Shown here: positions 9,092 through 10,668 of the stretch, in pieces
Layout: the number at the start of each line of letters is the position of its first letter
Position numbering within the stretch: the first letter of the stretch is position 1
From: an uncultured Bacilli bacterium
Lineage (GTDB): Bacteria > Bacillota_I > Bacilli_A > RF39 > UBA660
Reading direction: 5' to 3'
DNA length: 64,000 nt
Assembly (NCBI GenBank): GCA_934098505.1
Contig: CAKOOR010000001.1
Span: 365,534 to 429,533, forward strand
Made by a program: the position numbers and the translations under genes
The notes under the pieces: model-generated
Seen by the model: only the letters and a program-made list of their open reading frames with translations
The model's database searches: none
Told to the model about the DNA's origin: nothing

Positions 9092-10405
9092 TTATGGTTC
9101 TAGACGATTAGGCCCTCTAAATAAGAATTGTGTTTCTTTAACAGATGGAAGTCCAAGTAAAAGCATGGTTAAACGATCGACACCAACGGCAAATCCACCA
9201 TGAGGAGGACAACCATATTTAAAGAATTCTAAATAGAATTTAACATCATCACCTAGTCCTTTTTCTAAAGCTTGAGCTTTTAAAATATCATAGCGATGCT
9301 CTCTTTGAGCACCAGTTGTAATTTCCGAACCACGCCAAACTAAATCGTAACCTTGAGGAATATCATTTTTACGCATATGATAGAAAGCTCTCTTTGTTTT
9401 AGAATAATCTGTTATAAATAAGAATTCACTGTTATATTTTTCCATTGCATATTGATAAGCTAATTTTTCAGCCTCGGCATTTAAATCACCAACATCTTCC
9501 GTTGGAATAACAAAATTATACTTTGTTTGTAATTCATTATATAAATCTTGCAATTTTATTCTTGGGAATGGTTTAGTTGGTACAATTACTTCTTTACCAA
9601 ATATTTCTTTTATTTTATCGCCATATTTTTCTTTAACTTTAGTTAAACCAGCAATTAGTAAATTTTCTTCCATATCCATAACATCTTCATAAGAATCGAT
9701 ATAACTAAATTCTAAGTCAAAAGAAGTAAATTCAGTCGCATGACGATTGGTATTAGAATTTTCAGCACGGAAAGCAGGTGCTACTTCAAAGATTTTACTC
9801 ATACCGGCAGCCATAGCCATTTGTTTATAAAATTGAGGTGATTGAGCAAGATAAGCTTTGCGATCAAAGTATTTTACTTCGAAGACTTCACTGCCTGATT
9901 CAGAAGCAGCGCCAATTAATTTAGGCGTATGAATCTCGGTAAAATCTTCTTTATATAAGTAATCACGCATAGCTCCTACCATACAAGATTCAATTTGACG
10001 AACTAACATATTTTTTTCATTTCTTAAGTCTAAAAAACGATAATCTAAACGAGTGTCAATAGAAACACCATCTAAATTGTTATAGTCAAATGGTAAAGCT
10101 TCTGCTTTACTTACAACTTCAATGGTATCAGGGATTAATTCCATACCACCTAGTTTAACGGCTTCGTTTTCTTTTAAAGTTCCTTCAACTTTGATAACTG
10201 AATCAGTTGTTGTACTGCTCATAATTTCTAATAATGGGACATTTTTTTCATCGCTCTTTTCGATTGTCATCTGAACTTTACCTTTAGAATCTCTTAAGAT
10301 GACAAACATTACCCATTTTTTATCTCTTATGGTATCAACAAAACCTTCAAAGGTTATTTTTTCATTTAAGTGTTTACTCAATTCATTTACATATAATTTT
10401 TTCAT
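9092..10405 (-). CDS. aspS: Aspartate--tRNA ligase, short archaeal/eukaryotic type (likely non-discriminating)
   Basis: 437 aa with OB-fold N-terminus. QSPQFYKQ flipping-loop motif diagnostic of AspRS. FRAENSNTNRHATEF motif 2. Lacks the bacterial GAD insertion, since the size fits the roughly 430 aa archaeal type. Confidence 0.65.
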   Translation of the reverse strand: MKKLYVNELSKHLNEKITFEGFVDTIRDKKWVMFVILRDSKGKVQMTIEKSDEKNVPLLEIMSSTTTDSVIKVEGTLKENEAVKLGGMELIPDTIEVVSKAEALPFDYNNLDGVSIDTRLDYRFLDLRNEKNMLVRQIESCMVGAMRDYLYKEDFTEIHTPKLIGAASESGSEVFEVKYFDRKAYLAQSPQFYKQMAMAAGMSKIFEVAPAFRAENSNTNRHATEFTSFDLEFSYIDSYEDVMDMEENLLIAGLTKVKEKYGDKIKEIFGKEVIVPTKPFPRIKLQDLYNELQTKYNFVIPTEDVGDLNAEAEKLAYQYAMEKYNSEFLFITDYSKTKRAFYHMRKNDIPQGYDLVWRGSEITTGAQREHRYDILKAQALEKGLGDDVKFYLEFFKYGCPPHGGFAVGVDRLTMLLLGLPSVKETQFLFRGPNRLEP

Positions 10406-10419
10406 GTTTTCCTACTTTC

Positions 10420-10632
10420 TATTTCTAAAAAGAAAAAATTTCTATCTTCTGTAGGAGCGTTTTTAACGCGGTGCCATCCTACTTCATAGAAATTTTCTAC
10501 CTTAATTAATCTTAACGCGAATTAACGAAATATTTTTTACCTGGCTGTTTTTCTTAAAAAGGTTTAATTTGCTTCCACCAAATACAAACTCTCTATGTAA
10601 ACTACTTTTTATTACTCTTTCCAAAATATTTA
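10420..10632 (-). promoter_or_regulatory. T-box riboswitch leader upstream of aspS-asnS
   Basis: Minus strand carries AGGATGGCACCGCG (complement of 10467-10480), one mismatch from the T-box consensus AGGGTGGNACCGCG. It is followed by the terminator helix GTAGGA..GCG/CGC..TCCTAC and a T-run before the aspS RBS. An AG-box (CATAGAGAG) and a GGTGGAAGC distal loop lie further 5'. Confidence 0.6.
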
Positions 10633-10639
10633 TATTGTT

Positions 10640-10668
10640 ATTTTAATGCTTATTTTATTGCTTGTCAA
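10640..10668 (-). promoter_or_regulatory. Sigma-A-type promoter for the T-box leader
   Basis: Minus strand reads TTGACA (10668-10663), 17-nt spacer, TAAAAT (10645-10640), immediately after the stop of the upstream alaS-like gene. Confidence 0.5.

Follow-up and report, generated by a model that had tools for sequence, protein, structure and literature searches.

A 64,000-nucleotide stretch of DNA from an uncultured Bacilli bacterium (GenBank assembly GCA_934098505.1, contig CAKOOR010000001.1, positions 365,534 to 429,533; "the window" below) carries aspS, the gene of an archaeal-type aspartyl-tRNA synthetase (AspRS), followed by asnS, the gene of asparaginyl-tRNA synthetase (AsnRS). Between aspS and the upstream gene alaS lies a T-box leader with an asparagine codon, AAC, in the place of the specifier. 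Window numbering is used throughout, and alaS, the leader, aspS and asnS all lie on the minus strand (Table 1). Taken together, the features described below make it very likely that the leader is an Asn-specific, transcription-attenuating T-box riboswitch controlling aspS and asnS. For comparison, about 90 loci encoding the same AspRS family were gathered (L-numbers) and their T-boxes were located by pattern search and an nhmmer profile. A strict T-box regular expression directly upstream of aspS matched only 6 of 80 related loci, and the looser pattern and the nhmmer profile were needed.

The identities of the two synthetase genes were established with family profiles. The aspS product matched NF003483 ("aspartate--tRNA(Asn) ligase", archaeal-type) with 464 bits against a cutoff of 353, and TIGR00458 with 374.5 bits against a cutoff of 368.4. 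Its architecture is archaeal-type, with 437 amino acids (aa), an OB fold and a class II core (domains PF01336 and PF00152) and no bacterial GAD insertion; the closest solved relatives are Thermococcus kodakarensis AspRS and Thermus thermophilus AspRS2, and the protein is colinear with 3NEL/1B8A and 1N9W. The asnS product matched NF003037 with 596 bits (cutoff 414) and TIGR00457 with 541.6 bits. Because a terminator scan of the spacer between the two genes showed no terminator-like hairpin with a U-run, aspS and asnS very probably form a single operon. The promoter upstream of the leader has 11 of 12 matches to the sigma-70 consensus and is the top-scoring site of the scanned region; its -35 hexamer begins one base past the alaS stop codon, and the identical TTGACA-17-TAAAAT is kept in L003, L004 and L083. 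These results agree with the preliminary description, which had placed a promoter, an AG-box and a T-box motif in a 263-nucleotide (nt) gap before an archaeal-type aspS with a QSPQ motif and an asnS 31 nt further on; its coordinates were confirmed, and the strand is added here.

Table 1. Features of the alaS-aspS-asnS locus in window coordinates.
Feature	Position	Strand	Details
alaS	12411..10669	-	580 aa; open reading frame (ORF) map
Intergenic gap alaS-aspS	10668..10406	-	263 nt exactly; holds promoter and T-box
Promoter, sigma-70-type	10640..10668	-	TTGACA (10668..10663), 17-nt spacer, TAAAAT (10645..10640)
T-box leader	10450..10631	-	Rfam RF00230, full model 1-219, 84.5 bits, E 5.9e-19
Stem I	10537..10625	-	Base helix UGG/CCA; specifier internal loop 5' AAGAGUA, 3' GAAAAACA; covariance-model alignment
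AG bulge (AG box) AGAGA	10594..10590	-	Covariance-model alignment
Stem I distal loop	10583..10573	-	AUUUGGUGGAA; covariance-model alignment; also given as UUGGUGGAA
Specifier region	10553..10543	-	GAAAAACAGCC; sequence match
Predicted specifier triplet AAC (Asn)	10547..10549	-	Followed by conserved purine A10546; G10545 opposite A10620
Stem IIA/B region with F-box	10513..10527	-	CGUUAAUUCGCGUUA; CG..CGUUA columns kept, high posterior probability
Stem III hairpin	10487..10499	-	UAGAA-AAU-UUCUA; about -1.7 kcal/mol, measured on slightly longer GUAGAAAAUUUCUAU
T-box motif	10480..10467	-	AGGATGGCACCGCG; sequence match
Antiterminator	10451..10482	-	A1 GUAGGA/UCCUAC; 7-nt bulge UGGCACC 10476..10470; A2 GCGUU-AAA-AACGC
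Nested intrinsic terminator (predicted)	10427..10496	-	5' arm AAAAUUUCUAU 10496..10486; 3' arm AUAGAAAUUUU 10445..10435; U-run UUCUUUUU 10434..10427
Shine-Dalgarno-like GUAGGA and aspS start	10403..10415	-	GUAGGA 10415..10410; ATG 10405..10403
aspS	9092..10405	-	Archaeal-type aspartyl-tRNA synthetase, 437 aa, contains AQSPQFYKQ; ORF map
aspS-asnS spacer	9061..9091	-	31 nt, AUAAAAAGAAAUAAUGAAAGGAACAUAAAAA, AGGA ribosome site
asnS	7693..9060	-	Asparaginyl-tRNA synthetase of 455 aa, second operon gene; ORF map

The leader matches the Rfam T-box covariance model from end to end (E 7.5e-17 when the whole window is searched), and it is the only T-box of the window. Both the single leader that had been proposed and the expectation that the Rfam model would score the region hold, with the qualification that the score is below the gathering threshold. 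The T-box was recovered with an E-value threshold instead; the gathering score is a curation cutoff and not a biological feature. The shortfall is 8.5 bits and arises because the kink-turn (K-turn) columns and the Stem II columns drop out of the alignment, and orthologous leaders of relatives score between 78 and 107 bits against the same model.

Most elements of a canonical leader can be placed on the sequence. The specifier loop has the AGUA and GAA bases of the S-turn, Stem II has shrunk to a few bases (10536..10528), and the antiterminator folds with -10.7 kcal/mol (z -2.6) with a 7-nt UGGN ACC bulge between helices A1 and A2. When 11 leaders were aligned and analyzed with RNAalifold, the distal Stem I helix, A1 and A2 were recovered, and 12 of the 15 predicted pairs were kept through double changes. 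The distal Stem I helix shows compensatory changes across these leaders, and six of the nine pairs predicted in A1 and A2 show double compensatory changes, the remaining three being invariant. We hold that the leader is a genuine T-box with still higher confidence than we give to the mechanism as a whole.

The assignment of the specifier codon draws on the covariance-model alignment, on positional homology to leaders with GAC and on the conservation of AAC amid varying loop bases. The model aligns GAA-A-AAC-A of the window to its columns GAA-a-uuc-a, which puts AAC in the codon slot and makes A10546 the conserved purine. AAC or GAC falls in this slot in seven of eight leaders tested, one of them L096, an unrelated asnS-only T-box with AAC and then A. 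The window, L003, L083 and L085 likewise have AAC and then A there, and L026, L091 and L014 have GAC and then A. A MAFFT alignment of the 11 leaders gives A as the first codon base in five and G in six, each followed by an invariant A-C-A, and AAC is kept while its flanks vary (GAA-A-AAC-A-G, GAA-U-AAC-A-A, GAA-AG-AAC-A-G). Asn specificity, as suggested in the preliminary description, is therefore a well-supported prediction. The AAA register was considered and rejected, since L083 reads GAAUAAC, with UAA at that place, and no AAA is conserved.

The loop might also have a different register or serve more than one tRNA, being read either as ACA (Thr) followed by G10545 or through two codons as in the NT-box of Clostridium acetobutylicum, and this we regard as very improbable. 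ACA with a purine does stand immediately before the CC helix in the window, as it does in all AAC leaders; the covariance model chooses ACA and G for L012, and there is a report of long specifier loops offering two usable codons (Saad 2013, as cited in PMC4574755). However, the operon holds no threonine-related gene, and the register is set as codon plus A by L026, L027 and L091, GAC leaders in which the extra base is missing. In L012, L014 and L019, which read GAC-A-G-helix, the same extra G lies across from an A, so the extra purine in the window most likely belongs to the helix end and is not the post-codon purine; the same three would read ACA as well, yet they control aspS. The base before AAC varies among A, U and G, so that no second codon is conserved across the clade. 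In L085 the specifier loop GAAAGAACAG (about 1750-1765) contains a Glu codon, GAA, and the Asn codon AAC overlapping as GAAC. The two-codon NT-box arrangement described by Saad in 2013 is likewise said to be an overlapping GAAC.

Outside the clade of the window, GAC occupies the homologous position in all but one of about 30 specifier-bearing T-boxes from related Bacilli and Clostridia, the sole exception being the degenerate leader of L032, in which the specifier is less clear. The operons behind these GAC T-boxes are aspS, hisS-aspS, aspS-asnS, hisS-aspS-asnS or hisS-asnS-aspS. AAC is confined to the clade of the window, where it is found in four sequence lineages with AspRS 81-100% identical and always with the order T-box-aspS-asnS: the window and its 95% group read GAAAAACAGCC, L083 and L084 (89%) read GAAUAACAACC, and L085 (81%) reads GAAAGAACAGCC. 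A metagenome scan with the 15-mer AAGTAGGATGGCACC returned mostly chance matches, and the relevant ones were L157, L173 and L190, all of the 95% group, and the asnS-only L096. On a neighbor-joining AspRS tree, built without bootstrap, the AAC loci form one clade; their neighbor L091 has GAC before aspS-asnS, and relatives farther away than L091 either have GAC or lack the T-box. Identity to the window's leader falls smoothly, from 87 through 79 to 62% within the AAC clade and to 54-63% for the GAC leaders, which argues that the leader was re-targeted in place and not replaced. By this comparison of sequences, Asn specificity is predicted to be a derived Asp-to-Asn switch from a GAC ancestor through one G-to-A change.

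Such a switch would leave the T-box bulge untouched. The bulge UGGC predicts G73 in the cognate tRNA, and G73 is the discriminator base of bacterial tRNA-Asp and tRNA-Asn. The two tRNAs have similar major identity determinants, including the discriminator base, and differ in C36 versus U36 (PMC9976931), so the UGGC bulge can stay unchanged when the specifier changes. A single specifier change altered specificity in the experiments of Grundy, as these are summarized in PMC2494555.

Other relatives lack the leader or much of it. Six loci with 69-80% AspRS identity (L005, L008, L010, L086, L087 and L090) have hisS-aspS without any T-box, and in this group a 125-aa ORF whose function is not known sometimes lies between hisS and aspS. 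In the hisS leaders of L007 (2400-2720) and L023 (about 2440-2640) only the T-box/antiterminator and terminator are present, Stem I and the specifier having disappeared; such leaders resemble relics of a lost T-box or an extreme reduction of one. Gain or loss of T-box control over this operon has been frequent in the lineage. The leader of the window could itself be decaying or still respond to tRNA-Asp, with AAC a neutral or slightly deleterious change read by tRNA-Asp through an A-C mismatch, in keeping with its score under the gathering threshold, its two missing modules, the T-box losses in L005, L008, L010 and L086 and the remnants in L007 and L023. We consider this extremely improbable. 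AAC persists in four sequence lineages, with leaders down to 62% identity; the leader retains its promoter, its Stem I motifs, the T-box bulge and both terminator arms, with compensatory changes; and similar scores (78-107 bits) are reached by GAC relatives that have lost the same modules.

A competing terminator helix followed by a T-run had been proposed downstream of the T-box. The U-run is present, but the helix is not of the classical kind, as its 5' arm does not consist of the antiterminator 3' strands. In the textbook T-box terminator the 5' arm is formed by the 3' strands of A1 and A2 (PMC7583486, PMC5570125). In the window it comprises the loop and 3' half of Stem III together with the linker, and the antiterminator helices A1 and A2 remain intact at the tip of the hairpin. 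A simple terminator scan of the leader reported nothing. The fold with Stem III and the antiterminator (ON) has -13.2 kcal/mol and the nested terminator fold (OFF) -22.6 kcal/mol, making OFF more stable by 9.4 kcal/mol.

The nested design is shared by leaders that differ widely in sequence. Minimum free energy folds gave the same arrangement with a U-run in 16 leaders of quite different sequence; besides the window, it was seen in L003, L083, L085, L091, L026, L018, L027 and L089, and also in L006, L012, L014, L019, L022, L088, L009 and L096. Examples of the paired arms, each followed by a U-run, are GAAUUUCUAUAA/UUAUGGAAAUUC in L083, ACUUAGUA/UACUAAGU in L014, GGCCUAAAAA/UUUUUAGGCU in L022 and GACCUAGAA/UUCUAGGUC in L009. 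Cognate arm pairs of the 16 leaders average -13.2 kcal/mol and non-cognate pairs -7.8 kcal/mol, and the cognate mean was not reached in any of 10,000 permutations, a statistic that overstates independence and is not a strict probability, since the leaders are phylogenetically related. The classical register, with the A1/A2 3' strands as the 5' arm, gave -6.1 kcal/mol for cognate and -5.9 kcal/mol for non-cognate pairs (p = 0.27) and was rejected for this lineage. Clostridial relatives (L044, L048, L069, L082 and L046) have the textbook arrangement. In a third group (L011, L015, L020, L033 and L167) the 5' arm is formed by the T-box bulge and the A2 5' strand.

Translational control, instead of or besides transcriptional control, is suggested by the Shine-Dalgarno-like (SD) sequence of aspS, which repeats the 5' strand of helix A1. 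The A1 3' strand UCCUAC (10456..10451) can pair with GUAGGA at 10482..10477 or with the SD sequence at 10415..10410, AAGUAGGA being present twice in the leader; such a choice of partners is the sequestrator/anti-sequestrator layout of actinobacterial ileS T-boxes. A fold of 10470..10400 pairs UCCUAC with the SD sequence at -14.4 kcal/mol (z -3.1), and L003 and L004 allow this pairing as well (-7.9 kcal/mol). The comparison of SD pairing uses the values for L003, L004, L083, L091, L027 and L089. In L083 and L085, both with AAC, the sites are of the ordinary GGAG type and offer no more than 4-5 complementary bases; for the most part the match is generic, as any SD sequence is partly complementary to a CUCCU-like A1 3' strand; the enclosed loop is 35 nt; and a conserved, covarying hairpin with a U-run lies upstream of the SD sequence. 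SD sequestration was rejected as the main mechanism, the pairing not being conserved, and a translational component is improbable, though less so than a different codon register.

The elements, structures, covariation, specifier homology and gene identities described above can be assembled into a transcriptional mechanism, which we consider very likely as a whole. Transcription would start from the promoter at 10668..10640, and uncharged tRNA-Asn (anticodon GUU) would pair, in the specifier loop of Stem I, with AAC at 10549..10547, its 3' GCCA end pairing with UGGC of the T-box bulge at 10476..10473. This binding would hold Stem III together with helices A1 and A2 of the antiterminator in a "discriminator" fold, allowing the polymerase to read into aspS-asnS, and the uncharged tRNA would probably shield Stem III against invasion by the 3' arm. 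With charged tRNA-Asn the discriminator fold would not be stabilized, the 3' arm at 10445..10435 would invade the 3' half of Stem III (10496..10486), and the completed long hairpin, bearing A1/A2 at its tip, would stop transcription in the U-run at 10434..10427. The bound tRNA, the direction of regulation, the site of termination and the way in which tRNA binding opposes the nested terminator are what we infer in this scheme. A gene for the supply of Asn-tRNA does lie under the leader, asnS being 31 nt past aspS, and its presence within the operon is the simpler reason for an Asn specifier.

Several observations weigh against this mechanism. At the gathering threshold (93 bits) the Rfam scan of the window reported only two tRNAs and no T-box, the Stem I-base K-turn and Stem II are absent from the leader, and Stem I folded alone without constraints is no better than shuffled sequence (z +0.48), a result that is uninformative. 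No tRNA-Asn or tRNA-Asp gene, from which the anticodon, the discriminator base and the U1-A72 pair required by bacterial GatCAB could be read, was found in the window or among 45 scanned loci (a subset of L001-L091). To these may be added the ACA triplet of the window loop, the register chosen for L012 and the shared ancestry of the leaders used in the permutations. Finally, A1/A2 can persist in both states of the nested terminator, so that there is no textbook competition, and how tRNA binding would block termination is a matter of inference.

Why an Asn sensor should stand before aspS is more readily understood if the AspRS also serves tRNA-Asn. On this proposal the archaeal-type AspRS would be non-discriminating and make Asp-tRNA-Asn for the amidotransferase GatCAB, and the Asn T-box would induce the indirect route together with the direct one through AsnRS. 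The proposal adds to the T-box mechanism and does not replace it, and we regard it as possible, at somewhat less than even chances. NCBIfam places the protein under aspartate--tRNA(Asn) ligase, above the cutoff, and GatA homologues are abundant in related metagenome-assembled genomes; a precedent exists in C. acetobutylicum (Saad 2012, as cited in PMC4206432 and PMC4574755). In L009, L014, L019, L022 and L088 (1738-7317), one GAC T-box is followed by hisS-aspS-asnS or hisS-asnS-aspS and then directly by gatC-gatA(-gatB). These operons unite all genes for the making of Asp-, Asn- and amidated tRNAs with the archaeal-type aspS. This synteny is indecisive, since bacteria without GlnRS need GatCAB for Gln-tRNA-Gln, and with AsnRS present the indirect route is not required. 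In the 64-kb window, family scans of 34 larger ORFs (nearly all at least 300 aa) and tblastn with GatC and GatA of L088 found none of gatCAB, asnA/asnB, glnS or a second aspS. A GatA homology search found hundreds of RF39-like clusters, none tied to this genome.

The residues of the enzyme argue against dual charging. A histidine and a proline of the anticodon-binding domain are reportedly determinants of tRNA-Asn recognition, according to work of Feng et al. from 2003 and 2005. In an alignment to solved structures, the non-discriminating AspRS2 of T. thermophilus has His and Pro, whereas the window AspRS has D24 and K84 at these positions, and the discriminating enzyme of T. kodakarensis has W26 and K85. 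Of 90 related Firmicute AspRS sequences, none had His at the first position (mostly D/E), and the second was K, rarely R. The preliminary description had taken aspS for a gene that charges both tRNA-Asp and tRNA-Asn; this claim came from the family name and is not borne out by D24/K84. Judged by these residues, the blanket label "aspartate--tRNA(Asn) ligase" may be wrong for the Firmicute archaeal-type AspRS family.

The archaeal-type aspS occupies the canonical hisS-aspS position in relatives, which suggests that this enzyme is the only AspRS. The switch would then put the probably sole AspRS of a reduced-genome bacterium under the control of tRNA-Asn alone, an arrangement that makes sense if the Firmicute archaeal-type AspRS serves tRNA-Asn. 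That this holds jointly with a class of T-box terminators competing with Stem III and the purine string, and not with A1/A2, is a speculative proposal that we think unlikely to be correct in all its parts. If the Firmicute enzyme did serve tRNA-Asn without His/Pro, it would accept U36 by some other means, and the limiting route to Asn-tRNA would be that of transamidation. If the platform did compete with Stem III, A1/A2 would be shared by both states, ON as well as OFF, and the purine string and Stem III would form the portion of the discriminator docking onto the tRNA-bulge duplex.

The surroundings of the operon provide further information on the organism. The lineage is AT-rich, RF39-like Bacilli; the exact AspRS of the window is present on human-gut metagenome contigs, and the nearest named genome, "Mycoplasma sp. 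CAG:956", shares the gene order and has an AspRS that is 95% identical. The window contains ftsW/rodA, murG and two polysaccharide deacetylase genes (27247..28416, 42927..43874, 53300..54376 and 59978..61393), which show that the organism makes peptidoglycan and is walled despite the "Mycoplasma" label of its nearest named relative. The alaS product is a short-form alanine--tRNA ligase (NCBIfam NF002436, 769 bits, above the curated cutoff) that is without the usual C-terminal region, and the gene has a 4-nt overlap with a 177-aa P-loop ORF at 12408..12941. alaS is under T-box control in most Firmicutes; the alaS of the window has no T-box. Elsewhere in the window are a 378-aa ORF (18828..19964, minus strand) for an IS200/IS605-type TnpB of the RNA-guided endonuclease family and its sole tRNA genes, tRNA-Ile(GAT) and tRNA-Glu(TTC), which lie 12 nt apart at 42117..42281 (minus strand).

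The locus offers a clean natural example of a T-box that changes the amino acid it senses, as the first specifier base differs (GAC versus AAC) between close relatives, and the rest of the leader, UGGC bulge included, needs no change for the re-targeting. Because aspS no longer matches the sensed amino acid, the case breaks the rule by which T-box-regulated ligases are annotated, and the gene would receive a wrong label from automated annotation based on the specifier. It also raises the question of whether the widespread Firmicute archaeal-type AspRS really charges tRNA-Asn. If the nested terminator acts in the way proposed here, it would mean that a T-box can have Stem III, and not A1/A2, as its switching element. 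What most deserves further study is this terminator, together with the specificity of the archaeal-type AspRS of Firmicutes.

The closest precedent, and the one precedent, is the NT-box of C. acetobutylicum, a T-box that places an AspRS-GatCAB operon under tRNA-Asn control (Saad 2012, as cited in PMC4206432 and PMC4574755) and was later reported to read two overlapping codons (Saad 2013, as cited in PMC4574755). As far as these citing papers describe it, the NT-box shares with the window an AAC specifier directly before the AspRS gene and an AspRS expression that answers to the charging of tRNA-Asn. However, the second gene is asnS here and gatCAB there, the AspRS of the window is without the usual His/Pro signature, and the dual Asn/Glu reading is not conserved here, GAAC being found only in L085. 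The present lineage is RF39-like Bacilli and not Clostridium, its Asn specifier can be traced to a GAC ancestor, and a reduced leader with a nested terminator marks the present case.

The window leader belongs to the same family as the Asp T-boxes of Firmicute hisS-aspS and aspS and the Asn T-boxes of asnS described by Wels et al. (2008, PMC2494555), and it is 54-63% identical in sequence to the orthologous leaders L091, L026, L018, L027, L089, L088 and others. Asn T-boxes of asnS have been described before, and the same survey noted asnS in second place in a T-box operon (PMC2494555). Each T-box directly upstream of a tRNA ligase gene in that survey matched the amino acid of the ligase, which makes an Asn specifier before aspS unusual. 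In contrast to the surveyed set, the window has aspS as the first gene with an Asn specifier, and an archaeal-type AspRS in the position of the bacterial one.

The glyQS T-boxes of Bacillus and Geobacillus are also reduced and work without the Stem II domain; they are transcriptional, with Stem III and A1/A2 as the discriminator, as in the window leader (PMC7583486). The window leader differs in keeping the IIA/B element (F-box) and in not being glycine-specific, and whereas the glyQS terminator is classical, with the A1/A2 3' strands as its 5' arm, the terminator of the window encloses A1/A2 and is predicted to compete with Stem III. With the translational T-boxes of actinobacterial ileS the leader has in common an A1 3' strand able to pair with the ribosome-binding site (UCCUAC with GUAGGA), but here a conserved hairpin and U-run precede the SD sequence, the SD pairing is unconserved in the clade and Stem I is of full length. 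The T-box of the window is not fundamentally new; it is a tidy variation on a well-known regulator.

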